A DNA stretch of 64,000 nt, taken from Terriglobia bacterium (lineage in GTDB: Bacteria > Acidobacteriota > Terriglobia > JAJPHL01 > JAPKYU01). Each line of letters starts with the position of its first letter. The first letter of the stretch is position 1. The notes below the pieces were generated by a model. It did not search any database. It was given only the letters and a program-made list of their open reading frames with translations, and was not told where the DNA came from. Position numbers and translations under genes: made by a program. Positions 2,137 to 46,553 of this stretch are shown here, in pieces. The stretch is from assembly GCA_965206645.1 (NCBI GenBank), contig CBDBKE010000004.1:2016001-2080000 (forward strand), written 5' to 3'.

Positions 2137-2315
2137 GAAGCAGCCGGGCGTCTTCCACGAATTTCTCCCAACTCCTTCCTTTCGTCGCTCTTACACGGTA
2201 TTGGGGCGTCTGCATTCGCTCGCAACGCCTACGGCTAGCCCGCTTGATGGGCGAGTTTTCTGACGGTTTCTTGACGGTAGTTGCTGTCACGGCCATGCTC
2301 TACTGGCTGTGCAGC
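2137..2315 (+). repeat. Repeat A copy 1, putative att end of an integrative element
   Basis: GGCGTCTTCCAC...GAGTTTTCTGACGGTTTCTTGACGGT...CTACTGGCTGTGCAGC; homology with copy 2 continues to about 2448. Confidence 0.85.
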
Positions 2316-2497
2316 TTGTTGTCGAGTGCGATCCAGTCGTTGCGATACCAGCGCTTGATGGCCTCCACCTGCTCCCGCAGCTCGCTCCCCGTTCTTCCTT
2401 CGATCCACTCCATCTCGGTTGGGATCCCGAGTTGGACGAGCTGGTCCTGAAGTGCCGCATCGAGCCGGCAGGCCGCTCTGTCTTCACCGGGAGCCAC
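2300..2497 (-). pseudogene. 3' remnant of the element's terminal gene (...AIKRWYRNDWIALDNKLHSQ*)
   Basis: A homologous C-terminus abuts repeat A copies 2, 4 and 5, with internal stops or deletions. Confidence 0.5.
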
Positions 2498-2690
2498 TTC
2501 CCAGCCCAGTCCTGGAGCTGTTCCTGATGCTAGACAAAGTTCTTGACGGCAATGAAGATCGGCTTGCAGCGTTCACCTTGGCGGCACTACATCACCCTCT
2601 TCGATCAGGTGGTGGTTCCTATATGGCCTACTGTGGTAAGCGAATTTCCTGTGGTTCTTGCCTTGGGGGCGTGGGAGAATAGGAGGAAGC

Positions 2691-2849
2691 ATGAGCGGCG
2701 AGCTAATCAGCGTCTTGATTGCGGTGCTGGCATGGGGAGTAGTCTTGGCCGGGGTGATCCTGACCATCAGGCGCGGCCTGCACCAGGACATACGGCAAGA
2801 TATGGCGCAGCTGAAAGCGCGGCTGGATAGGAGAATCAGTTTTTACTGA
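2691..2849 (+). CDS. Small membrane-anchored coiled-coil protein, possibly truncated
   Basis: RBS AGGAGG; hydrophobic N-terminus followed by QDIRQDMAQLKARL; a C-terminal fragment of similar style lies at about 42755-42900 (-). Confidence 0.5.
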   Translation: MSGELISVLIAVLAWGVVLAGVILTIRRGLHQDIRQDMAQLKARLDRRISFY

Positions 2850-2942
2850 ACAATCTGTTGAGAGTTCACAAACTAGCCGTCCATGCGTGGTTCGGTTTGG
2901 CTTGGAGACCGGTTTTGAAGGGGAAGTAGAGGCGATCCGAAA

Positions 2943-3236
2943 ATGGCATATCGGATCTCTCTAACGGAAAGTGCAAAGCAAGACCTCGGTCATTTCGACG
3001 TACACGACCAGCGCATCATTGTCGCGGGAATATTGACTCACCTGAGAGTGGATGCGGAGGTCAGTACGCGAAAGAAGAAGCCGCTTCAACCAAATTCGGT
3101 CTCCCCGTGGGAACTCCGGATTGATAGATTTCGTGTTTTCTACTCGGTCGGAGAAGACAACGAAGTGAAAGTTGTTGCCGTGGGCCACAAAGAACACAAT
3201 GTGCTGTTCATCCGAGGAGAGAAGGTTGAGCTATGA
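2943..3236 (+). CDS. RelE/ParE family toxin
   Basis: 97 aa; YRISLTESAKQDL...WELRIDRFRVFY...VVAVGHK pattern. Confidence 0.85.
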   Translation: MAYRISLTESAKQDLGHFDVHDQRIIVAGILTHLRVDAEVSTRKKKPLQPNSVSPWELRIDRFRVFYSVGEDNEVKVVAVGHKEHNVLFIRGEKVEL

Positions 3237-3487
3237 AAACCATAAACTTAGATAAGAAAGCCCCTTCGGTGGACGAGCTCCTCGCCATCGCTCGCCGTGA
3301 GGTTGTCTTGCTCATCTCACACGATGGCACTCGCTTCGTTTTGGAAGAGGCCGACGACTTCGAGCGCGAAGCGGCCCAACTCGGCAATAGTGAAAAGTTC
3401 ATGAAGTTTCTCGAGGAGCGTTCATGCGAAAAAAGCGTCACTTCAATTGGGCAGTTCGCTGACGAGCTCAATTCAACAGATGCATAA
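3233..3487 (+). CDS. Cognate antitoxin (toxin-first TA pair)
   Basis: 84 aa, acidic, 4-nt overlap (ATGA) with the toxin stop. Confidence 0.7.
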   Translation: MKTINLDKKAPSVDELLAIARREVVLLISHDGTRFVLEEADDFEREAAQLGNSEKFMKFLEERSCEKSVTSIGQFADELNSTDA

Positions 3488-3570
3488 CACGTGGCTGCAA
3501 GCGGGCGGCAGCCACGGTATTTGAGTTCTCTAGGTAGTGGCCGCCGCAAGCGAGCCACAATCCGTCCGGC
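3482..3570 (+). other. Degenerate attC-like site
   Basis: GCATAAC overlaps the stop codon; TGGCTGC...GCGGC.CCAC and GTGGCCGC...GAGCCA form a stem; ends in GTCCGGC, a degenerate GTTRRRY. Confidence 0.5.
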
Positions 3571-3659
3571 ACATTCAGCCGCATCATAGACCATCAAATC
3601 TTCTTGAGCTACGCGGCCCCTGACCAGGATCTGGTCGAGAACTTCGCTGACCCGACTGG

Positions 3660-4193
3660 ATGAAACTCATGTTCGCCATTGGCTACCACGTCGGCGCCCG
3701 GGCGGGCTCGATCCTTGCTACGACGTGGAAGCAGGTCGATTGGGAGAAGAAGGTCATCCGGCCGCCGGCCAATCAGCCGAAGAACAAGAAGGTCGGCTTC
3801 TGGCCCATCTACGGCAACCTCGAGAAGCGCTTGAGAGAGGCTGAGTTCTGTCACCAAGAGTACTGGCCGCATGTCCCGTGGGTTATCCACAAAAGCGGAC
3901 GGCCGCTCAAGGGCGCTGAGGACTACCGCCACTACTGGAGCAAGGCCGTGAAACTTGCCGGGCTCAATGGACTACTGTTTCACGACCTGCGCCGGACGGC
4001 GGCCCGGAATCTGTTGACTTCCGGCATCGAACCCATAACGGTCTGCCGAATTGTCGGGTGGGAAACCTCGGCCATGCTCCATCGCTATCGCATCGTCGAT
4101 GAGATTGACGTCGTCCGCGCGGGCGATAGGGCGGAAAAATACCTTCAGTCGCTGGATGCGAGCGCCGCCGATCTAGAGGAGCCGCTGCAATGA
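3660..4193 (+). pseudogene. Tyrosine integrase, catalytic-domain fragment
   Basis: GAR, K, HDLRR, VGW and RY motifs; N-terminal domains missing; followed by the direct repeat CATTTGGAC twice (4202-4222), like arm-type sites. Confidence 0.8.
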
Positions 4194-4222: not shown

Positions 4223-4353
4223 GGTACTGTCAAGTTAAGCAGTTTGGCGGCATTCTCGCCGCCCGCCGCCACCGTTAAGTCATTGATTCTCGGTCTCTGA
4301 TCCAGCAGAATCCTTCCGCAAAACGGGCGGATTCTGCTCAACTTGACAGTACC
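4223..4353. mobile_element. 131-bp MITE copy 1
   Basis: Terminal inverted repeats GGTACTGTCAAGTT / AACTTGACAGTACC; near-identical copies at 49062 and 57393. Confidence 0.9.
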
Positions 4354-5370
4354 CCACTTGCTATCACCCGCTGCTTTTGTTCAATCGAGACGGCGACTGT
4401 CTGGCGGCCCAGCTCCGTCCGGGCAACGTGCACAGTGCCGAGGGTTGGGAGAAACTCCTGTTACCCGAGATTGAGCGCCAGCAAAGAATGGGAAAAGAGA
4501 TTGCGTTTCGGGCGGACGCGGCCTTTGCCAAGCCGGAGGTGTAGGAGGCATTGGAGGAACGGGGTGTGAAGTACGCAATTCGCATCCCGGCCAACGATAT
4601 TCTGCAGCGAGACATCGAAGAGCTACTGAAACGCCCCGTAGGAAGGCCCACCAAGAAACCGCTGGTCGAGTACAAGGGGTTCTTGTACCAGGCAGCCGGT
4701 TGGAAGACGGCTCGAAGGGTGGTGGCGAAAGTAGAGCATCATTCCGGGGAGTTGTTCCCGCGAGTGGGGTTCATTGTAACGAATCTGACGCTGCCGAATC
4801 GGGCGGTGGTGCGGTTCTATAACAAGCGCGGCACCGCGGAACAGTGGATCAAGGAAGGCAAGCAGGCGGTGAAGATGACGCGGCTCAGTTGCCACAAGTT
4901 CCGATCTAACGAGGTACGGCTTTGGCTGACGATCATCGCCTACAACCTGGGCAACCTGTGGCGACGGCTAGTGCTGCCACAGAGAATCGAGAAATGGTCC
5001 TTGACGAGCCTCCAGCAGCGGCTGGTGAAAACCGGAGGACGGCTCCTAAAACACGCACGGTACTACTGGCTCCTGCTGGCCGAGGGCCATTTGACCCGAC
5101 GGCTGTTTGCCAGCATGCTGGGGCGGATCGATGGATTGGCACTCCCGTCGGGATAGCCCGGGCTACGGCACACAAGAAAACGATGCCGCTATCCCCCAGG
5201 TATGGAGAGTTGTCTGAAAAAGCTGGGTTTGGATGCTGATTGGACGGTTTCAGGGGACCCCGAAAGGGACGCTCGGAGCTGATGGTCCTCTCGGAGAAAA
5301 CATTGTGCTCGCTGGGACGCAGATGCGTGTATATTTTCAATCGCCGCAAGGCCAAAAAGGAAATTCCGGT
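4354..5370 (+). mobile_element. IS1380-family remnant (transposase pseudogene)
   Basis: FRADAAF and YNKRGTAEQWIKEGK motifs; in-frame TAG at 4542; 5' part lost at the MITE; right end GGAAATTCCGG. Confidence 0.85.
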
Positions 5371-8438: not shown

Positions 8439-8745
8439 TGACGTGACCGGGGTTTTTTGTACCAGGTGAAATGAGAGAGAATTCACCTGAGAAGGAGCCC
8501 CGATCATGTCGACGAAGAGGTATAAGCCGGAGCAGGTTGTAAACCTCCTCTGGCAGATCGAAGTGGAGACTGCCAACGGGAAGACCACGCCGCAAGCCTG
8601 CCGGGATGCTCAGATCATGGTGCAGACGTACTATCGCTGGCGGAAGGAGTTTGGCGGGCTGAAGCTGGATCAGGCGAAACGGCTGAAGAAATTGGGGAAA
8701 GAGAACGCTCGCCTGAAGCGGTTGGTGGCGCAGTTGTCGCTGGAG
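8439..8745 (+). mobile_element. IS3-family left-end remnant (orfA only)
   Basis: IRL TGACGTGACCGG...TTTTTGTACCA; orfA from 8506 is homologous to 9481..9759. Confidence 0.8.
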
Positions 8746-8780
8746 ATAAAAGGTATTGTGAACGGCGGATTGGATGTTCA

Positions 8781-8960
8781 GGAAGCAGGCAGGCGTCTTC
8801 CACGGTTTTCTACCAACTCTTTCCTTTCGTTGCTCTTACACGGTTTTGGGGCGTCTGCTTTCGCTCGCAGCGCCTACGGCTAGCCCGCTTGATGGGCGAG
8901 TTTCCTGACGGTTTCTTTACGGTGGTTGCTGCCACCGCCATGCTCTACTGGCTGTGCAGC
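8781..8960 (+). repeat. Repeat A copy 2
   Basis: GGAAGCAGGCAGGCGTCTTCCACGG...; homology with copy 1 continues to about 9094. Confidence 0.85.
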
Positions 8961-9106
8961 TAGTTGTCGAACGCGATCCAGTCGTTGCAATACCAGCGCT
9001 TGATGGCCTCCACCTGCTCCCGCAGCTCGCTCCCCGTTCCTCCTCCGATCCACTCCGTCTAGGTTGGAATCTCGAGTTGGACGAGCCGGTCCTGGGCGCA
9101 TTCGCT

Positions 9107-9406: not shown

Positions 9407-10397
9407 AACACATTGACCTGACCGGCACTTTTTGTACCAAGTGAAAAGAGAGAGAATCCACTTGAGGAGGGAGTGAGGTCATGCCGACAAGGAGTTACAA
9501 GCCGGAGCAGATTGTAGCGGTGCTACGGCAGATAGAAGTGCAGATGGGGAACGGGAAGACTGCGCCCCAAGCCTGCAAAGAAGCTGGAATCCACACCCAA
9601 ACCTACTACCGGTGGCGGAAGGAATACGGCGGGCTGAAGGTGGTGCAGGCAAAACGGCTGAAGGAGTTGGAGAAGGAAAACACGCGGCTGAAGCGGTTGG
9701 TAGCGGAGCTTTCTCTGGAGAAGCAGGTGCTGCGGGATGTGGCACAGGGAAACTTCTGAGCCCTGAGCGGCGGCGTTGTGCGGTGGAGCGTGCGTGGGAG
9801 CAACACGGGTTGTCGGAACGGCATGCCTGCCGGCTGCTGGGGCAATGGCGAGGGACACAACGATACGAGCCGATTCATCGGGTGGACGAGGATGCTCTGA
9901 CCCGAGCGATCATTGCCCTGGGAGCGAAGTACGGGCGATATGGCTACCGGAGGATCACAGCGTTGCTGCGGAGTGCGGGCTGGGAAGTGGGCAAGGACCG
10001 GGTGCAGCGGATTTGGCGGCGGGAAGGGCTGAAAGTGCCGCAAAAACAAAGGCCGCGAGGACGGCTGTGGCTGAACGACGGTTCCTGTGTACGACTGAGG
10101 CCGGAGCGACCGAACCACGTGTGGAGCTACGACTTCATGAGTGCCAGAACGCACGAGGGGAGAACGCTGCGGCTGCTGACCTTGCTGGATGAGTACACGC
10201 GGGAATGCCTGGCGATCCGGGTGGAGCGGAGGATGGGCAGCCAACAAATCATTGAGGCGTTGTCGGACGTGATGTTGTGGCGAGGGATACCGGAACAGAT
10301 TCGATCCGACAATGGTCCCGAGTTCATCGCCAAACAACTGCGCCAGTGGTTGGCAAATCTAGGGACCGGGACACTGTACATCGAACCGGGCAGTCCC

Positions 10398-21646: not shown

Positions 21647-21825
21647 GAATCAGGCAGGCGTCTTCCACGGTTTTCTCCCAACTCCTTCCGTTCGTCGCAA
21701 TTACACGGTTTTGGGGCGTCCGCTTTCGCTCGCAACGCCTACGGCCTAGCCCGCTTGCTGGGCGAGTTTTCTGACGGTTTCTTGACGGTAGTTGCTGCCA
21801 CGGCCATGCTCTACGGGCTGCGCAG
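21647..21825 (+). repeat. Repeat A copy 3
   Basis: GAATCAGGCAGGCGTCTTCCACGG...; homology ends just before the IS481-like element. Confidence 0.85.
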
Positions 21826-21830
21826 TACCT

Positions 21831-23198
21831 TGTCCCTGGCGAATTGCTAGTTTACGGCCTAATTCCTGGGTTTAGCGGTTCTTGCTAAGATGCTGAGATA
21901 CGCAATCTCGTTATCCTTTTAGTCCATGTCATGGCTACTCTTACCCGGTTCTTGGGTCCGGGTGGCATTCGCTCTGTGATCGCCGAGTCCGTTCTCGCCA
22001 AGCAACAACTCCTGATCCTCAATCGTTCGCGACAGCGGTCACCCAATCTACGCACTTCAGATCGCCTCGTCGCCGGCCTGTGTGCTCTCCTCATCCGACC
22101 CGCCCGCCTGATCCGCTCAGCAATCGTGCTGAAACCTTCGACTCTCTTGAACTTCCACCAGGTTATGAGGAATCGAAAATATCGCCTGCTCTTCTCCTCC
22201 AAGTACAGAGGTAAGCCCGGACCAAAGGGGCCCAACAAAGAACTCATTGAAGCCGTCGTCCAGATGAAGCAACGCAATCCCGCCTGGGGCTGTCCGCGAA
22301 TTGCTAAACAGATTGCCTTGGCTTTCGACATCCCCATCGACAAAGACGTTGTTCGAAGGATTCTCGCCAGCCACTATCGGCCGAAAAAGGACTCCGGTGG
22401 TCCATCCTGGCTGACCTTCATTGGCCACATGAAGGACAGCCTCTGGAGTATAGATCTGTTCCGGTGCGAATCGGCCACGTTGCGGACCCGCTGGGTCTTG
22501 GTCGTCATGGATCAATACACCCGCCGGATCATTGGGTTCGGCGTCCACGCCGGAACCGTCAATGGCGTCGCACTTTGCCGCATGTTCAACCGCGCCATTC
22601 GATGGCTACCCTGTATGCCCAACTACCTCAGCTCCGACCATGATCCCCTGTATCGGTTTGGGCAGTGGCAAGCCAATCTGCGGATCCTGGAAGTGACCGA
22701 AATCAAAACCGTCCCCTATGTTCCCCTGTCCCATCCCTTTGTGGAACGGTTGATCGGCACGATTCGACGCGAGTATTTGGATCGCACGTTGTTCTGGACG
22801 ACGGCGGACCTGGAGAACAAGCTGCTCGATTTCAGGACATATTTCAATGCGTATCGCTCGCACACTGGACTGGAGGGGAGAACGCCTGATCCAGTCACGC
22901 CTATACCACGACCAGTCGCCAGGCTCCATTCCTATGGATGGCAACGCCACTGCAGAGGCCTCTATCACACCCCAATGACTGCCTGATTCTCCAAAGACTG
23001 GTGCTCCCTGTGTAACCGGCGGACATCGGTAGGCGGGCACTTCCTACGAAACCATTCGCTGTTTGAGCTTGTCAACGCGGAGCGGTTGTCTGATCTGATT
23101 GTTTCGCTGCTACCGAGGGTACTCCGCCAGTGTGCACTCGCCTCACTGGGGCAGCGGTCACGGGTAGAATCGCTCAACATATCAATTCGCAATGGACA
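21831..23198 (+). mobile_element. IS481-like (rve integrase core) element; CDS 21931-22986
   Basis: Ends TGTCCCTGGCGAATTG / CAATTCGCAATGGACA; WSIDLF, SDHD and VERLIGTIRRE motifs. Confidence 0.8.
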
Positions 23199-23365
23199 GG
23201 CTACCTCTCCTCTTCTCCTTTCACTCTCTCCCTTCTTTTCCATAGCTTTACACCCATTCAGGGACTCTGCTTTCGCTCAGCACATAACCCTTTTGGGCTG
23301 TTTGACTTGCATTTCTGACACATTTTCGGCACAGCAGGAGTGAAAGAGCCCTCCGGTCAAAATAT

Positions 23366-24775: not shown

Positions 24776-27423
24776 TGACCAGACCGATTTTTTGTACCAA
24801 CCGTAGTGAGAGTTCACATCGCAGCCTGGGGCTGTGAAACTGGTTTCAGTGGCAGGGGAGGGCTATAGAGTCTGTGTGAAAACCGCTCTTGCGAGTCACG
24901 TATAATGCGCCTTAAGGGGGCGCGATGAAATTCTTGACCTACAACCCGGAGCAAGCGTATCTGCTACCGCCCAGCGTGCGGGAGGTGCTGGGAGAAGATC
25001 ACATCTGTTTTTTTGTGCACCAAGTCGTGGAGCGGCTGGAACTGAGTGCGTTTGAGCAGGGCTACGTGGAAGAAGGCCGCCCGGCCTATCATCCGGCGCT
25101 GTTGCTGAAGGTGTGGCTGTATGCCTACGCGCTGGGCGTGACCTCGGCCCGCCGTCTGGAACAGCGGGTGCGGGAGGACCTGGCGTTCCGTTATCTGGCG
25201 GCCGGAGCGGGGCCGGACTTTTGGACGCTGAACCAGTTTCGGACGCGGCACGCCCGTGCCCTGAACGATCTGTTCACACAGGTGGTGGAGTTGGCGCGGT
25301 CGCTGGGGATGGGGCGGCTGGGACACGTGGCCATGGACTCGACGCGGGTGGCGGCCAACGCCTCGCAGGACCGGGTGGAGACGGTGGCCAAGTTGAGGGC
25401 AGAGCGAGCCAAAATTCGGCGGCAGATTCGTCGCTGGCAGAAACAATGTGACACGCAGTCCTGCGAGGAAGCGGCTGGCCAGCAACTGAGCGGCAAGCAG
25501 ATGGCAGCGCTGGAGAAGCGGCTGGAAGAAATCCCGCGATGCCTGGAGCGGTTGCGCAAAAGCGGGCTGAAGCGGCGTTCGGAAACCGATCCCGACAGCC
25601 GGTTTTTGCGCGACCGCAAGGGATTCACGCTGGGTTACACGGCGGAGGTGGCGGTCAGCGAAGATCATCTGATTGTCGAGCAGCACGTGGGGCAAAACGC
25701 CACCGACAACGCGACGCTGGTCCCTCTGGTGGAGGCGGTCGAGCGGCGCTGCCGGGAACGCCCGCAGAAGGTCAGCGCCGACAGCGGCTTCTTTTGCTTG
25801 GAGACCATCGTGGAACTGGCCCAGCGTGGCCTGGACGTCTATGTGCCCGACTCGAACTTGGCGCGGGAACTGAACCGAGGCCAACGCGCGCCCGGAGCAC
25901 CTGCTGTACGGCATCCGGAACATCGGCGAATGCGACGCAAGCTGCGCGACCCGGCCGGCCGGGCGGTTTATCAGCGGCGCAAGGCGATCGTGGAACCAGT
26001 GATCGGGGTTTTGAAAGAACAGCGTGGAATGCGGCAGTTCCGGCGGCGGGGCCTGGAGAAGGTCGCGGTGGAGTTCGCGCTGGCCGCAACGGCCTTCAAC
26101 CTCACCCGCCTGTGGCGCAACAAACCGAAGCTAAATCAGGAAGGCTAGTTCAGCAGACTCCCGGACCGGCGACTCGGCGAAGATCGAAACACCAGAATTC
26201 TGGAGCGAATCATGATCCCTTTTGATTTCCAGCCAGCTAAACCGAGTTTCCACACAGGCTCTATAGGCCCCCGGCGCCGGGGGCCTATAGGCGAGCGCCG
26301 AGTGCGGCCGCACCGTGTTGTATTGCACCCTCCACTGTTCAATCACCACCTGTGCCTCCTTCAACGAGTAGAAGATCTCTCCATTCAGGCATTCGTCCCG
26401 CAGCTTCCCATTGAAACTCTCGCAGTACCCGTTCTCCCAGGGACTGCCCGGTTCGATGTACAGTGTCCCGGTCCCTAGATTTGCCAACCACTGGCGCAGT
26501 TGTTTAGCGATGAACTCGGGACCATTGTCGGATCGAATCTGTTCCGGTATCCCTCGCCACAACATCACGTCCGACAACGCCTCAATGATTTGTTGGCTGC
26601 CCATCCTCCGCTCCACCCGGATCGCCAGGCATTCCCGCGTGTACTCATCCAGCAAGGTCAGCAGCCGCAGCGTTCTCCCCTCGTGCGTTCTGGCACTCAT
26701 GAAGTCGTAGCTCCACACGTGGTTCGGTCGCTCCGGCCTCAGTCGTACACAGGAACCGTCGTTCAGCCACAGCCGTCCTCGCGGCCTTTGTTTTTGCGGC
26801 ACTTTCAGCCCTTCCCGCCGCCAAATCCGCTGCACCCGGTCCTTGCCCACTTCCCAGCCCGCACTCCGCAGCAACGCTGTGATCCTCCGGTAGCCATATC
26901 GCCCGTAGTTCGCTCCCAGGGCAATGATCGCTCGGGTCAGAGCATCCTCGTCCACCCGATGAATCGGCTCGTATCGTTGTGTCCCTCGCCATTGCCCCAG
27001 CAGCCGGCAGGCATGCCGTTCCGACAACCCGTGTTGCTCCCACGCACGCTCCACCGCACAACGCCGCCGCTCAGGGCTCAGAAGTTTCCCTGTGCCACAT
27101 CCCGCAGTACCTGCTTCTCCAGAGAAAGCTCCGCTACCAACCGCTTCAGCCGCGTGTTTTCCTTCCCCAACTCCTTCAGCCGTTTTGCCTGCACCACCTT
27201 CAGCCCGCCGTATTCCTTCCGCCACCGGTAGTAGGTTTGGGTGTGGATTCCAGCTTCTTTGCAGGCTTGGGGCGCAGTCTTCCCGTTCCCCATCTGCACT
27301 TCTATCTGCCGTAGCACCGCTACAATCTGCTCCGGCTTGTAACTCCTTGTCGGCATGACCTCACTTCCTCCTCAAGTGGATTCTCTCTCTTTCCACTTGG
27401 TACAAAAAGTGCCGGTCAGGTCA
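24776..27423 (-). mobile_element. IS3-family element, interrupted by IS1182
   Basis: Near-identical to 28847-30096 in reverse orientation; orfA 27078-27356. Confidence 0.95.
24868..26261 (+). mobile_element. IS1182-family element; transposase 24925-26148
   Basis: Ends GAGTCTGTGTGAAAAC / GTTTCCACACAGGCTC; TATA duplication; GRPAYHP, MDST, ADSG and RKAIVEPV motifs. Confidence 0.93.
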
Positions 27424-30096: not shown

Positions 30097-30147
30097 CTAT
30101 CTGCCCCTCGATTATTCCTATTGGAGAGCGAAGGAGGCGGGCAGATT

Positions 30148-31113
30148 ATGAGCGCCGCGAGTGGCCTGGAACACCTGAAACCATTTCTACCGGGCTTAGA
30201 GAGCGCTCTGGAAGATTCCGAAGTCAGCGAGATCATGATTAACGGCCCCGGCAATGTCTGGGTCGAGCGGGCCGGGCGGTTGACGGCACATGACGCGCCG
30301 GACCTGGACGAATCGGCCCTCCTACGGGCAGCCATCCACATCGCGCGTCCGTTGGGCCTGGACCCGGCGAGCTCGCCGATTGTCGATGCGCGCCTGGACG
30401 ACGGCTCGCGGGTTGCCATCTGTGTTCCGCCCGCGAGCCCCACGGTGGCGATCACCATGCGGCGCTTTGGCAAGCGGGCGTTCTCGGCGGATGATCTCGT
30501 GAAGCAAGGCGCACTCTCTGAAAACGTACGGGCGGAAGCCGAGCGGGTGTTGCGCTCCCGGCGCAACATCCTGGTTTCAGGCGGCACCGGATCGGGCAAG
30601 ACCACCCTGCTTAACGCACTTATTGAATTGCTTCCCGACGACGAGCGCATCGTCGCCATCGAGGACACCCTGGAGCTTCGCATTGAGCGCTCGAATTGCG
30701 TCCGCTTCGAGGCTCGGGGGATCGACAGCGGCTCGGTGACGATCCGCGATCTTGTGCGCCATGCGCTGCGTCACCGCCCGGATCACATCGTGGTGGGCGA
30801 GGTGCGCGGCGGGGAGGCGGCGGACCTGCTGCAAGCCTTGAACACCGGACACGGCGGCTCCCTCACCACCGTACACGCCAACAACGCCGAGTCGGCCTTG
30901 TCGCGCATCGCCAGTTGCGCCATGCAGGGCGGCGGTGAGCTTCCCTGGGAAGTCACCTGCCGGGGCGTGGTGGACGGCATCGCTATGGTGATTCACATGA
31001 CCCGCCGAGAGGGACGTCGGTTCGTGGAGGAAGCGCTGCTCGTCCAGGGCTATGACGCGCCACAGAACCACTGGATCATCAAGCCGATCTGGAGGGAACA
31101 CGATGACGGATGA
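30148..31113 (+). CDS. VirB11/TrbB/CpaF family ATPase (module A)
   Basis: SEIMIN, Walker A GGTGSGKT, IEDTLEL, IVVGEVRG and NTGHGGSLTTVH. Confidence 0.92.
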   Translation: MSAASGLEHLKPFLPGLESALEDSEVSEIMINGPGNVWVERAGRLTAHDAPDLDESALLRAAIHIARPLGLDPASSPIVDARLDDGSRVAICVPPASPTVAITMRRFGKRAFSADDLVKQGALSENVRAEAERVLRSRRNILVSGGTGSGKTTLLNALIELLPDDERIVAIEDTLELRIERSNCVRFEARGIDSGSVTIRDLVRHALRHRPDHIVVGEVRGGEAADLLQALNTGHGGSLTTVHANNAESALSRIASCAMQGGGELPWEVTCRGVVDGIAMVIHMTRREGRRFVEEALLVQGYDAPQNHWIIKPIWREHDDG

Positions 31114-31301: not shown

Positions 31302-31516
31302 GCCTTGACGGAGAAGCGCCAGATGCCCCGATCACGGTGAAGGCCGCCGCCCGTTTCCTGGGCGTCAGCCCCTCGCTGGTGTATGCTTACGTCGAGCGAA
31401 AGCAGATTCCCCATTACCGCATGATGGGCCGCTCGATCCGCTTCCGACGGTCGGAGTTAGCCGGGTGGCGCCAGCAATTTCATGTGAATGGAGGAATCGA
31501 TGAACAAGACAGGTAG
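31298..31516 (+). CDS. Excisionase-like HTH_17 protein (module A)
   Basis: TVKAAARFLGVSPSLVY...IPHYR..RSIRFRRSEL. Confidence 0.85.
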   Translation: MSLDGEAPDAPITVKAAARFLGVSPSLVYAYVERKQIPHYRMMGRSIRFRRSELAGWRQQFHVNGGIDEQDR

Positions 31517-32660
31517 ACCGAGAAATACCGCTGGTAGCCTGTACCTCCGGCGCAATTCACGCGTCTGGTGGATGAGCTATCGAGAGCAGAACGGGAGGTG
31601 GAGACAGCCCTCGACAGGGCAGAGAGAAAAAGGGGAAGCCGAGAAGGTGATGCGCAAACGGTTGGTGGCCCGCGATGAGGGGTTGCTGCCGAGCGCCGCG
31701 CCGGGCGGGGAGATCAGGTTCAACGAGTGGGCGGACTGGTTCCTTGAGAACCGATCCAAACCACCCTTCCGGAGCGAGAAGACTCACTTGCAGAACCTCG
31801 GCGCGTTGAAGTTCCTGAGGCCCCGGTTCGGCAAGAACAGACTATCGGACATCACACCGGAAGATATCGAATCGTACCTGATGACCAGATTGAATACAGG
31901 CAAGCGGGTGCATACCAAGTTGGGGCTGCAACTTCGCGGCAGGCTCAAACCTGCCACCGTGCATCAGGAGTTTCGCGTCCTGAGACGCATCCTGAACGTG
32001 GCGGTGAAGAAGCGACGGCTGGCGGTCAATCCGTGTAATGGGGTGGAGTTTCCGGTCGCGTTGGCTGGTGCGACGCGCAAGCCTCACTATCTGACCGCCT
32101 CGAAGCAGGCCTGGCTGGAAGCCTGCGCGCCCCTGTACCTGCGCAACATCATCGCGATCATGGTGGAGATGGGGCTGCGGCCCTATCGCGAGTTGATCCC
32201 GATGCGAAAGGGACAGGTCGATCTGGAGAACGGGATCGTACATCTGCCGGATTCCAAGACGGTGAACGGCATCGCGGACATGCCGATGACCGACAGAACC
32301 CGCGAGGCGTTCGCCTCGCAGATGAAGCAGAGCGGCGATTCCAACTACCTGTTCCCGAGCCCGCGGATGGACTCGAGCAAGCCGCACATCACGACGGTGC
32401 AAAAGCTGTGGAACCGGACGCTCCAGCGCGCCGGGCTGCCGCATTTTTCGCTATACGAGCTGCGCCACACGTTTGCGACCCGGCTCAGCGCCGGGGGCGT
32501 AGCGGATCATTTCGTGACGCAGATGCTCCGACAAGGCGACGCCTCGGTGTTCAAGCGCTACAGCCAGGCGAAGCTCAACATGATGCGGGAAGCGCTGTCC
32601 AAGCTCGACCGACAGGCGAACGAGCACGGCGCGAGTTCCTTTACAGCGCTGGCCATCTAG
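31500..32660 (+). CDS. Tyrosine recombinase/integrase A
   Basis: RBS GGAGG; arm-binding-type N-terminus (GSLY...WWMSY); GLR, DSKT, YELRH and KRY. Confidence 0.92.
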   Translation: MNKTGRPRNTAGSLYLRRNSRVWWMSYREQNGRWRQPSTGQREKGEAEKVMRKRLVARDEGLLPSAAPGGEIRFNEWADWFLENRSKPPFRSEKTHLQNLGALKFLRPRFGKNRLSDITPEDIESYLMTRLNTGKRVHTKLGLQLRGRLKPATVHQEFRVLRRILNVAVKKRRLAVNPCNGVEFPVALAGATRKPHYLTASKQAWLEACAPLYLRNIIAIMVEMGLRPYRELIPMRKGQVDLENGIVHLPDSKTVNGIADMPMTDRTREAFASQMKQSGDSNYLFPSPRMDSSKPHITTVQKLWNRTLQRAGLPHFSLYELRHTFATRLSAGGVADHFVTQMLRQGDASVFKRYSQAKLNMMREALSKLDRQANEHGASSFTALAI

Positions 32661-32745
32661 AGCCAGTTTTTTGACAGTTTCTTTACAGTTCCGTCTTCGG
32701 CAACGAGACGCAAGGCAGACGGGTGATGAAAACAAATAAGTTAAA
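32661..32745 (+). other. att arm between integrase A and the tRNA 3' end
   Basis: AGTTTTTTGACAGTTTCTTTACAGT tandem motif shared with repeat A; IHF-like AAACAAATAAGTTA. Confidence 0.65.
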
Positions 32746-32822
32746 TGGTGGGCGGTGGAGGGCTCGAACCTCCGACCTCCTGCTTGTAAGGCAGGCGCTC
32801 TGACCAACTGAGCTAACCGCCC
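32746..32822 (-). tRNA. tRNA-Val (anticodon TAC), CCA encoded
   Basis: GGGCGGTTAGCTCAGTTGGTCAGAGCGCCTGCCTTACAAGCAGGAGGTCGGAGGTTCGAGCCCTCCACCGCCCACCA folds as a cloverleaf. Confidence 0.97.
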
Positions 32823-32923: not shown

Positions 32924-34066
32924 TCAATTTGGTCGCTCCGTGACAAAACTCCGGTTGGCCTCGTTTGCCATCCGGTTCAGCTTTTGTAAAGCCTCACGCT
33001 TCATTTGCAGCTTCATTTGCGAATATTTCTTGAACACTTTCGCGTCCCCTTGACGGAGAAGCTGCGTAACCCACTCGTCCGCCACTCCGCCGGCGCTCAA
33101 CCGTGTCGCGTACGTCGAGCGCAGATCGTAGATGCGGAAGTAAGGGACCTTGGCCCTTCGCGAAACGGCGTGCCAGACTGTCTTCAGAGTCTTTTGGTGC
33201 GTGCTTGGGTTATTGTGACTCGGGAAAAGCCAAGGGCCAGGCCCCGAGATTCGAATCTGACCACGAAACGCTTCAAGAGCAACGTTGGTCAGTGGGACCT
33301 CCGAGATTCCGTTGGGCGTCTTTGAATCCGCAATCCAGACCACCGCATTGTCCAGGTCCACCTGATCCTTTTTCATCGGCAGCAGCTCCTTGTATATGCG
33401 GAGTCCGGTCTCGGTGATGATCCGAATAATGTTTTGCAGATACTCGGGCGCTTGAAGTTCAACTCTCTGTTGTTCGGACCAGGATATGTAGTGCGGCCGG
33501 AAGAGCCCCTTGACTTTGACGGGGAACTCGACTCCCAGACACGGATTTGCCGGAAGCAGTTTCTTCCGCACCGCGACATTCAGCATTCGGCGAAGTACCC
33601 GCAATTCCTGATGCACCGTTGCGGGCTTGAGCCGCCCGCGCTGAACGACACCTACGGCAGTTCGGACTGGCACTCGATCCTGCAGCCGGCGCCGCAAGTA
33701 GAGCTCCACATCGTCGGCTGTGAGATCGCCCAAATTCCGGTCCTCGAAAGCCTTCTTAAGATGCGCGCTGCACCGCAGATTAGCTTCGTGGGTCCGGTGC
33801 GCGCGAATCGGAGGCTGCGAGTAATTCTCCAAGAAAAACTCCACCCAATCAGCAAATCGAAAATGCTCTCCTTTCCGGACGATGTCCAAGATCCTATCGT
33901 CCCTTGCCTGAAGGCGCTCTCGGAGCTTCCGCTGCGCCTCGTCCCAATTCTCGGTGAACGTCGACTCTCGGATCCGCTTACCGCTACGGTCCCGATAGGA
34001 CATCCAGAGAATCCTGCCGTCATTGCGTTTATAAACGGCGCCATCGTGTTTACTCGGCCTTGCCAT
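32924..34066 (-). CDS. Tyrosine recombinase/integrase B
   Basis: Paralog of integrase A; GLR, DSKT, YDLRS and KKY; direct repeats CCGTGACAAAAC at 32909 and 32938. Confidence 0.92.
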   Translation of the reverse strand: MARPSKHDGAVYKRNDGRILWMSYRDRSGKRIRESTFTENWDEAQRKLRERLQARDDRILDIVRKGEHFRFADWVEFFLENYSQPPIRAHRTHEANLRCSAHLKKAFEDRNLGDLTADDVELYLRRRLQDRVPVRTAVGVVQRGRLKPATVHQELRVLRRMLNVAVRKKLLPANPCLGVEFPVKVKGLFRPHYISWSEQQRVELQAPEYLQNIIRIITETGLRIYKELLPMKKDQVDLDNAVVWIADSKTPNGISEVPLTNVALEAFRGQIRISGPGPWLFPSHNNPSTHQKTLKTVWHAVSRRAKVPYFRIYDLRSTYATRLSAGGVADEWVTQLLRQGDAKVFKKYSQMKLQMKREALQKLNRMANEANRSFVTERPN

Positions 34067-34271: not shown

Positions 34272-34493
34272 CAACTCTCCCCGTCCTTCCTCATGGCTGG
34301 TCCGGGCCATATTTGCCTTCCCTTAAGAGTCCAGAAAAAACGATTAGCGACCTGGGTGAAAGCTTGCCACGACGATTGCCCCACGCTGAAAACTCAGTCG
34401 CATCAGCGCTACACGCAGGTTGAAGTTCCGCTCTTGGGGCTTTGTTAAGTAGGGTCGCGCTGTCCGATCCGACCTCCGGAAAGGTGTTATGGC

Positions 34494-34772
34494 TTATCGC
34501 AGCACAGGGGAGCCACGAAAAATTTGAACGTGGTCTTGGGAAGGAGCGACGCGAACCCCCGTCCTCTCCCCTCTCCACGCCGGACCGAGCGCTTTACCAG
34601 ATCCACCTTCCGCCCCGGATCGGCGAGTCCGGCGGCCTGCGTCTTCGGGAAAGACGCCGTATTCCTCGGCGATCCAGGCCGGGACTTCCCGCGTCTCCTC
34701 ACCGCCCCGGCCGAGCTCCCGTTCGAAGTCTTCCAGAGTCTTCACTCGTATGATTTTTTCTTCATCCGTCAT
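34494..34772 (-). CDS. Small hypothetical protein (module B)
   Basis: KTLEDFERELGRGGEET.EVPAWIAE.YGVFPED is shared with 31110-31301. Confidence 0.6.
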   Translation of the reverse strand: MTDEEKIIRVKTLEDFERELGRGGEETREVPAWIAEEYGVFPEDAGRRTRRSGAEGGSGKALGPAWRGERTGVRVAPSQDHVQIFRGSPVLR

Positions 34773-35490
34773 CGTGTTCCCTCCAGATCGGCTTGATAAG
34801 CCAGCGGTTTTGCGGCGCGTCGTAACCCTGGACGAGCAGCGCTTCCTCCACGAACCGACGTCCCTCTCGCCGGGTCATGTGAATCACCATAGCGATGCCG
34901 TCCACCACGCCCCGGCAGGTCACCTCCCAGGGAAGCTCGCCGCCGCCCTGCATGGCGCAACTGGCGATGCGCGACAAGGCCGACTCGGCGTTGTTGGCGT
35001 GTACGGTCGTGAGGGAGCCGCCGTGTCCGGTATTGAGGGCTTGCAATAGATCAGCGGCCTCCCCGCCCCGGACCTCGCCCACCACGATGTGATCCGGGCG
35101 GTGGCGAAGCGCGTGGCGCACCAGGTTGCGGATCGTCACCGCGCCGGTTTCCAGCCCGCGAGCCTCGAAGCGGACGCAATTAGAGCGATCAATGCGAAGC
35201 TCCAGCGTGTCCTCGATGGCGACAATTCGCTCGTCATCCGGTAGTAGTTCGATCAGCGCATTGAGCAAGGTGGTCTTGCCCGAGCCGGTGCCGCCTGAAA
35301 CCAGAACGTTGCGTCGGGAGCACAACACCCGCTCGGCTTCCGCCCGCACGTTTTCGGGGAGTGCGCCTTGCCCCACCAGATCATCGGCGGAAAACGAGCG
35401 CTTGCCAAAGCGCCGCACCGTAATAGCCACGCGAGGACTTGCGGGCGGCACACAGATTGCAACCCGCGAGCCATCCTCCAAGCGGGCGGC
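34762..35490 (-). pseudogene. VirB11/TrbB ATPase (module B), 5'-truncated by repeat A copy 4
   Basis: Very similar to 30148-31113 from ARLEDGSR onward; the N-terminal part is replaced by repeat A. Confidence 0.88.
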
Positions 35491-35657
35491 GACTTTCCAC
35501 GGTTTTCTCCCAACTCTTTCCTCTCGTTGCTCTTACACGGTTTTGGGGCGTCTGCTTTCGCTCGCACGCCTACAGCCTAGCCCGCTTGATGGGCGAGTTT
35601 CCTGACGGTTTCTTGACGGTGGTTACTTCTACGGCCATGCTCTACTGGCTGCGCAGC
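35479..35657 (+). repeat. Repeat A copy 4
   Basis: Homology with copy 5 continues to about 35744. Confidence 0.85.
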
Positions 35658-36009
35658 ACGTTGTTGCAGTAATGGTTTTTGATCTGCTATAGCCCGGCTC
35701 GTCGTGAGGACCGTTTTGTCGAGCCATGGAATCTACTTTCCCTATTATCAATCGGGGCCAGGAGAGGAAACGATGCCGCGATTCAAGGAACATCAATTAC
35801 AACTAGTGGGCTTGATAGGTCGTTTTGAGACTGATTCATCATCGACTCACGTCCGTAACGCGCTCGCGGCGATAGGGCGCTTGAAGGATGCCGGAGCCAA
35901 AGTTTGGAATGAGGATCCCCAGAAACTACGCCGATGGCAAGAATATTGCGCCACTTTGTGGACGTTTCTCAACAGCAGTTTGCGACAACGCCGGCATCTT
36001 AAGAAGCAA

Positions 36010-36291
36010 GATTTGGCTACGATCAATCGTCACGACGTGCCGTCCAGTCTGCACCGTTGCGTGGCGACGACGAATGTGATCGAGAGTCCGCAATCGGGGG
36101 TGCGGAAAAAGACGGGCAATGTTTGCCGCTGGCGCGACGGGGAGATGATCTTGCGCTGGGCAGCGGGAGCGTTCCTGCTGACTGAAAAGAAGTTTCGTAG
36201 AACCATGGGCTATCAGGACCTGTGTGCCTTGGCCGGCATTCTCGGCCGAACGAGTATCGCTACTGCCGCTGAGAAGGAGAAAGGGACGTAA
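36010..36291 (+). pseudogene. IS256 transposase C-terminal fragment
   Basis: TINR...SLHRCVATTNVIESPQ...EKKFRR is homologous to 10493-11782. Confidence 0.8.
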
Positions 36292-36292
36292 C

Positions 36293-43813: not shown

Positions 43814-43998
43814 CTCTTTAACCCTGCCTGACGCCTGACTGAGGCCACGGTCCCTTTCTTCATTTCCGCTCCGAGACGCCCGCTGATGGTTACTTTGCCT
43901 TTTTTGACAGAATGATGGTACTGCCGATGACTACCACGAGTCCCCACTAAATACCACCCGTCGTTTTCGATCATCCTGATAACATCCCGCACCTTCAC
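43810..43998 (-). CDS. hicA: HicA toxin
   Basis: DGWY...RGSHRQY...KGKVTI. Confidence 0.88.
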   Translation of the reverse strand: MKVRDVIRMIENDGWYLVGTRGSHRQYHHSVKKGKVTISGRLGAEMKKGTVASVRRQAGLKR

Positions 43999-44002
43999 GA
44001 CG

Positions 44003-44148
44003 CATGCTCAAGGGCGGTGGCGATCTGGTCCACTTGGATCAAGTGGTGAAGCGCCTGGGGCGTGGCGTCGTGGATTGCCTTCACCGGCGCGTCCAGGTCG
44101 GAGAGGGCATCACCGATGGGAACCAACTCGCCGCGTTTACGCTGCATG
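44003..44148 (-). pseudogene. RepA N-terminal fragment
   Basis: MQRKRGELVPIGDALSDLDAPVKA matches the start of the gene beginning at 41931. Confidence 0.7.
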
Positions 44149-44579
44149 GCTTCTCATAGTCCTGAGCGCCGATGGCCCTATTCGTCACCACCAGGCTCTT
44201 TAGGGAGCAGAACATCAAGGGCATCATGTGCATCCTTGCCCGTCTTCCCGATGGCATGCGAGCTCACCGTCTTCGGTAAAGCCATCAATGCCAATGATCT
44301 GAACGGCCCCATAACTCTTACGAATCCGCTCCGCGAGCGCGGGGGCTTCGTAGACGACCATCACGGCGCTGTGAACTGTAAATTCTGAAAACTCAAACAA
44401 GCTTGGCTCACCTGGAGCCCCCGTCGGCGTCATGTCTTGAAGAACCGAATCTCAAGAAGTTCTTGCGCTTCTTTGTCGCCCTTCTTGGCCTCAGAGATGG
44501 TGTGTAAAATCTGCTCAAGCTCATATTCCCATCCGCCGTGTGTCAAGGGCGGAGTAAAACTAGACCACTCCGGCGAGAT

Positions 44580-45431
44580 TTACTTGTCCTTCAGTAGCTC
44601 CCGGGTCTTTGGTTGCCATTCCCGCGCCAACCGCTGGGCTTCGGCGATTTGTGAAGCAGTCATCTGCTCTGCCAGTTCGTCTCTTCCTGATCGGTAGCTC
44701 TCCGCCAATTTCCCCGTAGTCGTTCGTAAAGCGGCCAAGTTAATCCACTTGTGGGCTTGGACATAGTCCTGGGGAACGCCCTCACCAAGGGCGTACATAA
44801 ACCCGAGGCGGTATTGGGCGTCGGCATCCCCCTGCTCGGCGGCCTTGCGATACCAACCCACGGCCTCTTGGTAGTCCCGGGGAACGCCCACACCGTTGTC
44901 GTACCTGAGCCCGAGGTTGTATTGGGCGTCGGCTTGCCCCTGCTCGGCGGCCAGGCGGTACCACTTCACGGCCTCCTGATAGTCCTGGGGAACGCCATCG
45001 CCGTTGTCGTACATGTCCCCGAGGTTGAATTGGGCGTCGGCTTGCCCCTGCTCGGCCGCCAGCCGGAACCACCTCACGGCCTCCTGGTAGTCCTGGGGTA
45101 CGCCATCGCCGTTAGCGTACATGACCCCGAGGTTGAATTGGGACATGGCGTCTCCCTGCTCGGCGGCCAGGCGGTGCCACTTCACGGCCTCATGGTAGTC
45201 CTGAGGAACACCCTCGCCGTTGTCGTACTGGACCCCGAGGCTGAATTGGGCGTCGGCTTGCCCCTGCTCGGCGGCCAGGCAGTACCATTTCGCGGCCTCC
45301 TGGTAGTCCTGGGGAACACCCTCGCCGTTGTAGTACCTGCGCCCGAGGAGGAATTGGGCGTCGGCGTCTCCCTGCTCCGCATTCAAACACAGTTGTTCGA
45401 CTTCTGTGGTATGTTTCATCTGGGTCTCCAT
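44580..45431 (-). CDS. SEL1-like repeat protein
   Basis: About six 36-aa repeats AQFNLG.MY.NG.GVPQDY.EAVKWY.LAAEQG. Confidence 0.93.
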   Translation of the reverse strand: METQMKHTTEVEQLCLNAEQGDADAQFLLGRRYYNGEGVPQDYQEAAKWYCLAAEQGQADAQFSLGVQYDNGEGVPQDYHEAVKWHRLAAEQGDAMSQFNLGVMYANGDGVPQDYQEAVRWFRLAAEQGQADAQFNLGDMYDNGDGVPQDYQEAVKWYRLAAEQGQADAQYNLGLRYDNGVGVPRDYQEAVGWYRKAAEQGDADAQYRLGFMYALGEGVPQDYVQAHKWINLAALRTTTGKLAESYRSGRDELAEQMTASQIAEAQRLAREWQPKTRELLKDK

Positions 45432-45774
45432 TTCGTCCCTTCCCCCGGCTTTCCTCCCAATCCGTTCTGCCCATTCTCCCACGTCCCAAGACAAGAATCA
45501 CCGGAAACGACCAGAGAAAGGGGGCGAACGGATCAGCCGGGTGATCTACAATCCAATGGCGTTTCACGCGGATCGAGCCGCTGTCGCGGAGCAACCCTCA
45601 ATCATCGAGCATCTGGACGACGGCCCCCTCGAAGCCCTCCTGGCTGATGAATCGGTAACTGAGGTGAATCCGGAGACCGGCGAAGAATTGCTTTCGATCC
45701 GATTCGCCAATAGCGATGATAATGTGCTCCTAAGCCGGTCCTACACGCTGCGCCATGATCAGCTGGCGCTGGCC

Positions 45775-45875
45775 CGCGCGCTGAAGTTCCTGAGGCCCCG
45801 GTTCGGCAAGCAGAAACTATCGGACATCACACCGAAGGATATCGAATCGTACCTGATGACCAGATTGAACACAGT
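45775..45875 (+). pseudogene. Internal fragment of an integrase A paralog, cut by repeat A copy 5
   Basis: ALKFLRPRFGKQKLSDITPKDIESYLMTRLNT matches about 31803-31898. Confidence 0.85.
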
Positions 45876-46051
45876 CAGGATGGCGTCTTCCACGGTTTTC
45901 ACCCAACTCCTTCCTCTCGTTTCTCTTGCACAACTTCGGGGCGTCTGCTTTCGCTCGCAACGCCTACGGCCCAGCCCCCTTGATGGGCGAGTTTTCTGAC
46001 AGTTTCTTGACAGTCGTTGCTGCCACGGTCATGCTCTACGGGCTGCGCAGC
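45875..46051 (+). repeat. Repeat A copy 5
   Basis: Contains GAGTTTTCTGACAGTTTCTTGACAGT; homology with copy 4 continues to about 46139. Confidence 0.85.
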
Positions 46052-46553
46052 ACGTTGTTGCAGTAATGGTTTTTGATCTGCAATAGCCCGGCTCCTCGTT
46101 AGGACGCGCTTTGTCGAGCCGGGGGAACTACTTTCCCTAACCCACCACCCTCTGCGTCGGGGTCCACAACGAAGCTGTAGTGACCGCTCTCTATTTTCTT
46201 CTTCGCCTTTGCAAATCATTTATCCGGAGGCGTCAATTTCTCCTTTTCTCCGCAACCCACGAGTGATTGGGCAAGCGCTTTTTCCGCCAGGGATCGGCCG
46301 ATACGTCCCTTTCCATCCTCAGAAGGGATGGATGTGCGATCCTGGCCCAAGTCAGAGCAGACCCCCTGTCCGGCATGGCTGCGACCCGACCGTATCATGC
46401 GATGAAACGATCCATCCTCCGCCGTTATTCGGTTGGACGGTGGCGCTTCGTAGTGGACCCTCTGCTAGTGAGTTGGGGGCACCGGGCCGGCAACCACCAA
46501 TACCTTTTCCCATGGAGAGGACATTCAGGAACCCGGCCTTGGGTGAGGACGGA

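Follow-up and report, generated by a model that had tools for sequence, protein, structure and literature searches.

Attachment sites (attP) of lambda-type integrative systems are built of long arms around a short exchange region, with tandem repeats far out on both arms and inverted half-sites enclosing a 7-nt spacer. Here we analyse a stretch of 64,000 nucleotides (the window, C4:2016001-2080000) from the genome of a Terriglobia bacterium (G000; 4.4 Mb in 4 contigs), in which a repeat of about 185 nt, designated repeat A, occurs five times and which also encodes a tyrosine integrase, integrase A. We consider it highly probable (about 85%) that repeat A is the integrase-distal attachment (att) arm of a family of integrase A elements, which target tRNA anticodon loops as well as look-alike sites. 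Judged by its sequence, the family appears to share with lambda-type attP the long arms, the far tandem repeats on both sides and the inverted half-sites around a 7-nt spacer. It differs from the lambda-type system in that no conserved excisionase-like gene was found between the parts common to its elements in G054, a genome of about 4 Mb from another family of the same class.

Three described systems come close to the repeat A family, as far as the excerpted text of each source goes. In the Islander survey, 2083 of 3919 tRNA-linked islands have an anticodon-centred attP, with a 3' tRNA fragment in 3760 islands and a 5' fragment in 159 (PMC4383910). Islander class A islands (Hudson et al. 2015, PMC4383910) are similar to the present elements in having a tyrosine integrase at one end, an attP tRNA fragment that rebuilds the gene, a crossover in the anticodon loop and, apparently, a displaced fragment at the far end. 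By these counts, the mechanism considered here and its variant with a 5' fragment (integrase B, see below) are therefore both of known kinds. Integrative and conjugative elements, integrative and mobilizable elements and decayed cis-mobilizable elements accrete in tandem at common att sites (Guedon et al. 2017, PMC5704250). As in our case, conjugative and smaller elements there have an integration module in common, decayed ones keep their att ends, and composite islands grow through successive site-specific events. The tycheposons of Prochlorococcus are tRNA-targeting cargo elements, the remnants of which build islands (10.1101/2020.12.28.424599). Tyrosine recombinases at tRNA genes, and partial tRNAs and integrase fragments scattered in islands, are features common to both; according to the excerpt each tycheposon integrase clade uses one tRNA and a genome holds 1-2 elements, the comparison being one of description and not of protein homology.

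The repeat A copies and the integrase A end are located in the window as follows:
2137..2322, + strand: repeat A copy 1, subfamily I; left flank unique, downstream of a KAP NTPase gene
8781..8966, + strand: repeat A copy 2, subfamily I; separated by a 36-nt filler (8745-8780) from the broken orfA of an IS3-family insertion sequence (IS)
21647..21833, + strand: repeat A copy 3; left flank unique, downstream of an AbiJ-like gene; an IS about 30 nt to the right
35479..35664, + strand: repeat A copy 4, subfamily II; adjoins a VirB11-like ATPase gene lacking its 5' part
45875..46060, + strand: repeat A copy 5, subfamily II; adjoins the 5' portion of a sibling integrase gene
31488..32660, + strand: integrase A, tyrosine recombinase; catalytic domain at aa 212-361, weak SAM-like matches at aa 78-183
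32661..32745, + strand: integrase-proximal att arm, 85 nt; conserved in 10/10 aligned ends, with the tandem motif at 32672-32689

All five copies lie in the same orientation and have a sharp left edge, just as a first-pass annotation of this DNA had described them. The core common to the five copies is about 185 nt long, its right edge being near +186. The chance of five copies being co-oriented is 1/16, and a BLAST search of the whole of G000 with copy 3 yielded 15 copies, 7 on the + and 8 on the - strand; the co-orientation in the window is therefore only local. Repeat A is present in 7 of the 61 genomes searched, that of the window included (i.e. 6/60 relatives). Two of the six relatives belong to the genus of G000 and the remaining four to three further families of the class, with identities of 86-95%. 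A scan with a 33-mer from the centre of repeat A, allowing up to 3 mismatches, counted 11 copies in G000, 6 in G003 (same genus as G000), 33 in G054, 18 in G033 and 3 in G017, with 0 for a reversed control pattern. The alignment of 25 copies from 5 genomes exhibits a mean column identity of 90%; its most variable part is the first 12 columns, and CTTCCACGGTTTTCT, TTACACGGTTTTGGGGCGTCTGCTTTCGCTCGC and GCCCGCTTGATGGGCGAG are near-invariant blocks. Repeat A is found together with relatives of integrase A in G000, G001, G003, G017 and G054.

To the right of the core, the copies continue into one of two subfamilies (I and II) of extension, 60-150 nt in length, past which the cargo is unrelated from copy to copy. 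The suggestion that copies run here into the 3' end of one and the same terminal gene did not hold. Frames of the right-hand extensions, ending at a TAG inside the repeat, measure 4-124 aa and are truncated at varying points, and the five longest of them matched no Pfam family at the family cut-off (best E-value 0.024, 15 bits). The two right-hand subfamilies look like relics.

The role of repeat A is best seen on contig C1 of G000. There, a 36-kb segment at about 275.26-311.25 kb carries repeat A at one end and, at the other, integrase A, the 85-nt arm and the 3' half of a tRNA-Val. This segment splits an IS transposase gene, the halves of which are now 36 kb apart, the first half abutting repeat A at its left edge (IS...CTGATTGTCGAGCAG|GCTGGCGTCTTCC). 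At the right junction, integrase A (97% identical), the 85-nt arm and the tRNA-Val 3' half are followed by the remainder of the IS (...CTGCTTGTCGAGCAG|CGCGTGGGGC...). The two junctions have an 11-bp direct repeat in common, TTGTCGAGCAG. The empty-site counterpart is an intact IS in the window (25600-25760), which is continuous across the join:
25669..25683, + strand: CTGATTGTCGAGCAG in the intact IS transposase gene, equivalent of the 36-kb C1 insertion point in an empty site

The comparison of the filled with the empty site therefore identifies repeat A as the integrase-distal end of an element. The right junction of the C1 element, with a tRNA-Val 3' half joined to the same IS, is also observed in G003 (locus L059, C2:216487-216937). 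The insertion of an element into this IS, common to G003 and G000, is either inherited or recurrent.

Similar boundaries were obtained in G054. For four of the five candidate pairs of repeat A and integrase taken from this genome, direct repeats of 10-17 bp are present at both junctions, delimiting elements of 15.1, 17.9, 18.4 and 32.6 kb. The 32.6-kb element in turn has its integrase gene interrupted by a nested element of 13.4 kb with an 8-bp repeat (GCTTGCGC), and the target of this smaller element is continuous in intact integrase genes. When the four elements are compared, they are alike only in repeat A (about 180 nt) and in the integrase with its arm (about 1.1-1.4 kb). On the side where it is expected, and no more than 62 kb away, a co-oriented repeat A accompanies 19 of the 21 integrase genes listed for G054; 2 of the 21 have repeat A on the wrong side (chance expectation about 4.7; binomial P = 6e-11). 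The linkage to this integrase family, a central point of the first-pass annotation, thus holds even though repeat A occurs on both strands genome-wide.

Integrase A matches PF00589 (E-value = 8e-18) and is found in G000 as four full-length copies (90-100% identity) plus fragments. In 10/10 aligned ends from G000 and G054, the gene is followed by the 85-nt arm, a variable segment of about 45 nt and a point of divergence; the variable segment opens with TGG and resembles a tRNA 3' half read backwards. TGACRGTTTCTTKACRGT occurs six times in the window, always on the + strand: once in each repeat A copy and once 12 nt past the stop of integrase A, against 0 expected from 100 shuffles. This bears out the earlier observation that the tandem motif near the integrase stop recurs in every copy. 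The distance from the tandem motif to the exchange region is 118-143 nt in repeat A and about 100-125 nt on the integrase side, with the same orientation. A related integrase, 52% identical and located at tRNA-Val(cac), is followed just past its stop by two copies of another tandem motif, GGTTTTGATACGG, and a 50-nt displaced 3' fragment of this tRNA lies 66.6 kb off, beside a distal arm with a repeat A-like layout and a pair of GGTTTTGATACGG. The tandem motif therefore switches with the integrase family at both ends, which is the best evidence here for arm-type sites. By their sequence and placement, the tandem repeats TTTCTGACGG/TTTCTTGACGG are candidate arm-type binding sites of the integrase.

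Left junctions of repeat A were surveyed by regular expression, yielding 37 junctions of which 31 are unique (some copies were missed, including that of the C1 element itself). In the logo of the 31 unique junctions, YGC is found at offset -22 in 20 of them, in comparison with 0-7 at 36 other offsets. The letters C, T, G and C at positions -23 to -20 are present in 18-24, and G, C, A and G at -12 to -9 in 26-30 of the junctions; the core is therefore CTGC-N7-GCAG. Direct repeats span N7 in all six complete elements, and the exchange region corresponds to the 7 nt directly left of GCAG(G/C)C. Repeat A supplies the right half of this core. The left half comes from the target; in the circular form it would be the end of the tRNA-half segment carried beside the integrase (the cassette). 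From the direct repeats and the logo, the core proposed in the first-pass annotation (half-site, spacer and GTCTTCC) is therefore shifted: the true core lies about 10 nt further left, and GTCTTCC is inside the arm. The target logo and the empty site that it had suggested seeking were both obtained.

In tRNA-Val(tac), the core stretch is the anticodon stem and loop. In G000, three of the five integrase-proximal ends run into a complete tRNA gene (Val-tac, Ala-ggc and Pro-ggg, respectively). Next to the repeat A copy at C4:551471 lie 47 nt that match exactly the 3' part of tRNA-Arg(tct) from the anticodon loop on, which is the layout expected of a displaced tRNA fragment; no partner integrase end was found for this copy. 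In G054, 0 of 20 integrase-proximal ends abut a tRNA gene (6 ends and 14 of 15 loci, the fifteenth being without the arm motif), and all 20 retain a tRNA-half-like cassette. Such cassettes (tRNA halves) vary behind near-identical integrases. The non-tRNA targets claimed in the first-pass annotation are thus indeed used by the family, the primary targets being tRNA anticodon loops.

Unlike the Islander class A islands as presented in the excerpted survey (PMC4383910), the repeat A family has many members in non-tRNA look-alike sites, amounts to 21 integrase genes and 33 distal arms in a single 4-Mb genome, and carries cassettes that differ between near-identical integrases. Unlike the tycheposons, again as excerpted (10.1101/2020.12.28.424599), it has near-identical integrases at three different tRNAs as well as at numerous non-tRNA sites. 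The high copy number, the many non-tRNA look-alike sites, the differing cassettes and the recurrent hits on sibling integrases are particular to this family. The underlying mechanism (tyrosine integrase, anticodon-loop crossover, element accretion) is already well known. No published description of the repeat A element family was found in a broad literature search judged by titles.

The recurrent insertion point in sibling integrases is a near-palindromic site, (C/T)GC-TTGCGCA, at codons ~50-57 of the gene, and it is hit in both orientations. The intact site is seen in integrase A of the window at about 31640-31660. Five of the 21 integrase genes of G054 (1137146, 1325343, 1677456, 2548871 and 3526253) are interrupted at this site by a repeat A in inverted orientation, 24-68 nt off, and insertions are also found at L033, L038, L045 and L050. 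Matching right junctions were found for insertions at these codons. Contigs joining integrase position 31657 to a repeat A copy are present in all four public runs that we consulted.

Putting these elements together, we propose that repeat A (about 185 bp) serves as one arm of attP in a family sharing the tyrosine integrase A. An integrated element reads, on its left, target, 7-nt exchange region, repeat A (starting with GCAG(G/C)C) and variable cargo, and, on its right, integrase gene, 85-nt arm, a cassette of about 45 nt ending with CTGC, 7-nt exchange region and target, the cassette being a tRNA 3' half or a look-alike. In the circular intermediate, which we infer from this arrangement, the cassette and repeat A would meet as CTGC-N7-GCAG, a mimic of the anticodon stem-loop, and the integrase would exchange strands inside N7. 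Insertion in a matching tRNA would thereby restore the gene and move the old 3' half beside repeat A. Sites merely similar to CTGC-N7-GCAG also serve as targets.

Several observations weigh against repeat A being the att arm of integrase A elements. With regard to the half-site, YGC is present in 3 of the 11 junctions of G000 versus 17 of 20 in other genomes (Fisher P = 0.004), and in 0/5 window copies versus 20 of the 26 other unique junctions. With regard to pairing, the 15 repeat A copies of G000 exceed its 5 integrase-proximal ends; the window has one integrase-proximal arm, and no partner end was found for any of its five copies; copy 3 and the window integrase-A end have no direct repeat in common; and no direct repeat was found at the junctions of one of the five G054 candidate pairs (L033). 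For the integrase-A element at tRNA-Pro, the displaced fragment (45 nt, 36.8 kb off) is flanked by DNA other than repeat A, and G044 has one repeat A, with no integrase-A relative found at E-value<=1e-20. In four public runs that include the unique DNA nearby and consist of assembled contigs only, no excised-circle junction (tRNA-loop|repeat A) was seen on positions 19500-36500 among 15 joints out of 39. These joints are paralogous ones: IS 25683|repeat A, integrase 31657 (codon 57)|repeat A and integrase 31899 (codon 137)|repeat A. An arm-binding domain would be expected in the N-terminal part of integrase A; aa 1-77 exhibit no Pfam match up to E-value = 5, a PDB profile search gave matches from aa 81 onwards and none in aa 1-80, and in an AlphaFold model built with 8 sequences the predicted local distance difference test score is below 50 at aa 1-49.

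The junctions of the window copies are of particular relevance here. Two of them lie in recognisable genes:
34762..35481, - strand: truncated VirB11-like gene, target or deletion end-point of copy 4
45776..45888, + strand: sibling integrase fragment (equivalent to 31801-31917), target of copy 5

At copy 2, orfA is broken at CTGGAG, where intact orfA copies go on with AAGCAGGT; the same break, without the 36-nt filler, is found at C4:1961848. A paralogue of the gene at copy 4, 96.7% identical over 209 nt, continues past the breakpoint (...CAAGCGGGC|ATCCACG). Copy 5 adjoins the first ~130 codons of the sibling integrase, where intact genes read ...ATACAGGCA|AGCGGG, and its junction recurs at C4:1068391 of G000. 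For four of the five window copies, some copy of another genome is a closer match than any of the 7 other G000 copies aligned. Lacking both half-site and partner end, the window copies would therefore be orphan ends of decayed or rearranged elements, and this origin of the orphan arms we infer from the junctions. We read them as the orphan distal arms of at least five separately acquired elements. The first-pass annotation had taken them for the integrase-distal ends of at least five sibling elements, joined to degenerate non-tRNA targets: the filled and empty site, the direct repeats and the 19/21 pairing bear out the first half of this claim, and the missing partner ends and half-sites suggest that the junctions may not be five primary integrations. 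A single intact 11-kb element from copy 3 to integrase A was also considered and rejected, its junctions agreeing at only 5/11 positions; moreover, the displaced tRNA-Val(tac) 3' fragment is found nowhere in G000 except in the C1 cassette.

The five window junctions may thus stem from secondary rearrangement rather than from primary integrations into relaxed targets, with repeat A still being an att arm, a course of events to which we assign slightly less than even odds. Possible routes are integrase-mediated deletion between the repeat A core and weak look-alikes in cis, recombination of sibling integrase genes where co-oriented elements are nested, and IS-mediated deletion; each would strip the integrase ends and the original left half-sites. 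The absence of YGC from the window junctions (0/5, against 20/26 elsewhere) and the single integrase-proximal end against five distal arms are what such routes would leave. Co-orientation is expected after deletion between directly repeated sites, and the 36-nt filler at copy 2, the IS density of the window and the seven copies with GAA directly left of GCAG instead of the full 7-nt exchange region point in the same direction. However, the true integration on C1 likewise lacks a perfect half-site (CTGA), so that weak sites are used in true integrations, and copies 4 and 5 break genes where the intact paralogues resemble the right half of the core (GCGGGC and GCAAGCG). The closeness of four copies to those of other genomes fits separate arrivals.

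Other readings concern repeat A itself. It is improbable, though less so than the two readings taken up next, that the att arm has an additional function explaining its strong conservation, such as an outward expression signal (minus strand GGAAGGAG, 14 nt, with a GTG at the edge), an origin of transfer or a platform for a directionality factor. The blocks CTTCCACGGTTTTCT, TTACACGGTTTTGGGGCGTCTGCTTTCGCTCGC and GCCCGCTTGATGGGCGAG are nearly invariant while the first 12 columns vary, and the G054 elements have no conserved excisionase-like gene between their common parts; none of the present results favours any one of these functions, and dense protein binding in the intasome could account for the conservation alone. 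A structured non-coding RNA, either a guide-like RNA at a transposon end or a regulatory small RNA, is very improbable. The 90% mean column identity is as high as that of the integrase gene, and the minus-strand layout (frame end, about 165 nt, sharp edge) recalls transposon-end RNAs. But no copy has an Rfam match up to E-value = 1, no nuclease or transposase gene is associated, the right-hand frames being short (4-124 aa) and without a convincing family match, and the boundary acts as a site-specific recombination junction. Covariation, which the first-pass annotation had named as a sign against its own proposal, was absent: the RNAalifold covariation term is +0.08 and compensatory change is seen in 1 of 36 pairs, with low power at 90% identity, and variation mostly breaks the predicted pairs. 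A transposon-end RNA was dropped as a candidate because the frames are short and differently truncated, with no Rfam match and no covariation. The least probable reading makes repeat A the end of a transposase-driven element (an IS, a miniature inverted-repeat transposable element or a composite transposon) unrelated to integrase A. Its many copies dispersed over both strands (33 in G054), often inside other mobile genes, would suit such an element. Its two ends are unlike, however (repeat A versus integrase, arm and cassette), and the flanking repeats vary in length (8-17 bp) and are sequence-specific, in contrast to a duplication of fixed length. The sole gene common to the elements is the tyrosine integrase, with no linked transposase, and its pairing with repeat A is tight and oriented.

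We also note an outward-facing feature on the minus strand of repeat A. Its most invariant part is GGAAGGAGTTGGGAGAAAACCGTGGAAGAC (window 21658-21690, at the equivalent place in every copy), which resembles a ribosome-binding site followed by GTG at the extreme edge of the element; a frame starting there would cross the exchange region. At copy 4, the outward GTG is out of frame with the truncated gene beyond the junction.

The tRNA-Val gene to which the integrase A end of the window is joined has a second integrase on its other side:
32746..32822, - strand: tRNA-Val(tac); the 3' half to the anticodon loop is carried by integrase-A elements, the 5' half and upstream region by integrase-B elements
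32924..34066, - strand: integrase B, 50% identical to integrase A, on the 5' side of tRNA-Val(tac)
23199..23339, + strand: repeat B fragment, a distal arm joined to integrase-B ends elsewhere, weakly collinear with repeat A

Integrase B is followed by tandem repeats of its own (GTTTTGTCACGG, three times), then by a conserved stretch of about 100 nt and by the tRNA-Val(tac) 5' half, which extends to the anticodon loop. Three further integrase-B copies of G000 (C3:8573-9859, C4:1073427-1074617 and C4:1973730-1975027) have repeat B in place of the tRNA 3' half. Since integrase-B ends are joined to repeat B elsewhere, the tRNA-Val(tac) of the window seems to be a composite, its 3' half coming from an integrase-A element and its 5' half with the upstream region from an integrase-B element. 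A comparable arrangement is seen at C4:433305-569073 of G000, where tRNA-Val(cac) lies between two integrases of the 52-53% class. Its displaced fragments are the 50-nt 3' fragment at 66.6 kb on one side and a 42-nt 5' fragment at 69 kb on the other, and the two distal arms around it are 75% alike.

The cargo of the G000 elements includes a backbone beside the tRNA-Pro integrase, where genes for VirB11, a TraG/VirD4-like coupling protein, VirB8, TrbI/VirB10 and CagX/VirB9 are found. The same backbone also encodes a VirB4-like ATPase, VirB3, TrbC/VirB2 and ArdC. It is common to the tRNA-Ala element over about 16 kb, to the C1 element over about 5 kb and to the window copy over 2.7 kb. Given these type IV secretion genes, the G000 elements are therefore conjugative elements in various states of decay. 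No relaxase family was detected among 43 frames scanned at E-value<=1e-4, a scan that was not aimed at relaxases. The G054 elements are smaller (13-33 kb) and carry restriction-modification and other cargo, with only the integrase and the two arms in common. In the window, the backbone is represented by one gene:
30121..31113, + strand: VirB11-like ATPase, last remnant of the type IV secretion backbone beside integrase A

Homology of the window backbone to the sibling elements ends at about 30095, at the end of an IS3-family element. One element of this IS family is abundant in G000, a 166-nt piece of its orfA giving about 95 BLAST hits (roughly a hundred copies). IS3-family copies lie in the window at 9411-10427, 26131-27225 and 28844-30100, and integrative elements have repeatedly been cut by them.

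Of the integrase-A family, the window thus retains five distal arms without partners and a single intact integrase end, that at tRNA-Val; pieces of integrase and VirB11-like genes and numerous insertion sequences complete the inventory. The whole is an accretion, or graveyard, of decayed conjugative and smaller integrative elements with defence-type cargo, not a new kind of system. Unlike the accretions presented in the excerpted text of Guedon et al. (PMC5704250), the orphan ends of the window are not in clean tandem at a tRNA gene, only the distal arm survives, and the ends are joined to unrelated cargo, insertion sequences and sibling genes. Other repeated or broken sequences were noted in the same stretch. 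A plasmid RepA_C-type gene (39814-41931) is split by an IS with an rve-type transposase (40060-41268), and a second partial RepA_C-type copy lies near 44051-44148, which suggests that integrated plasmid remnants are also part of the island. Six tandem units of 108 nt (44656-45488) are located within a Sel1-repeat protein gene (44580-45494, - strand). A 135-nt repeat is present in three copies of 96-99% identity (4223-4357, 49062-49196 and 57393-57527), one of which follows an integrase fragment of another family (3660-4193).

The present analysis yields the exact boundaries and the core logo of an element family whose sequences in several families of one class are about 90% identical at the nucleotide level, and it accounts for a 64-kb mosaic region as an accretion of decayed elements. 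The look-alike targets form a natural series of pseudo-sites, on which the possible relaxation of a tRNA-mimicking attachment site can be studied. We further put forward, as a tentative and rather doubtful possibility, that the conserved unit is a minimal, transposon-like module of integrase and two arms. Its exchangeable tRNA-half cassette of about 45 nt would set the primary target, and the module would multiply to 20-33 copies per genome at non-tRNA CTGC-N7-GCAG sites, with a preference, in either orientation, for TTGCGCA at codons ~50-57 of sibling integrases. If this is true, incoming elements would disable the resident integrases, thereby fixing the residents in place, and would seed nested islands like the one in the window.

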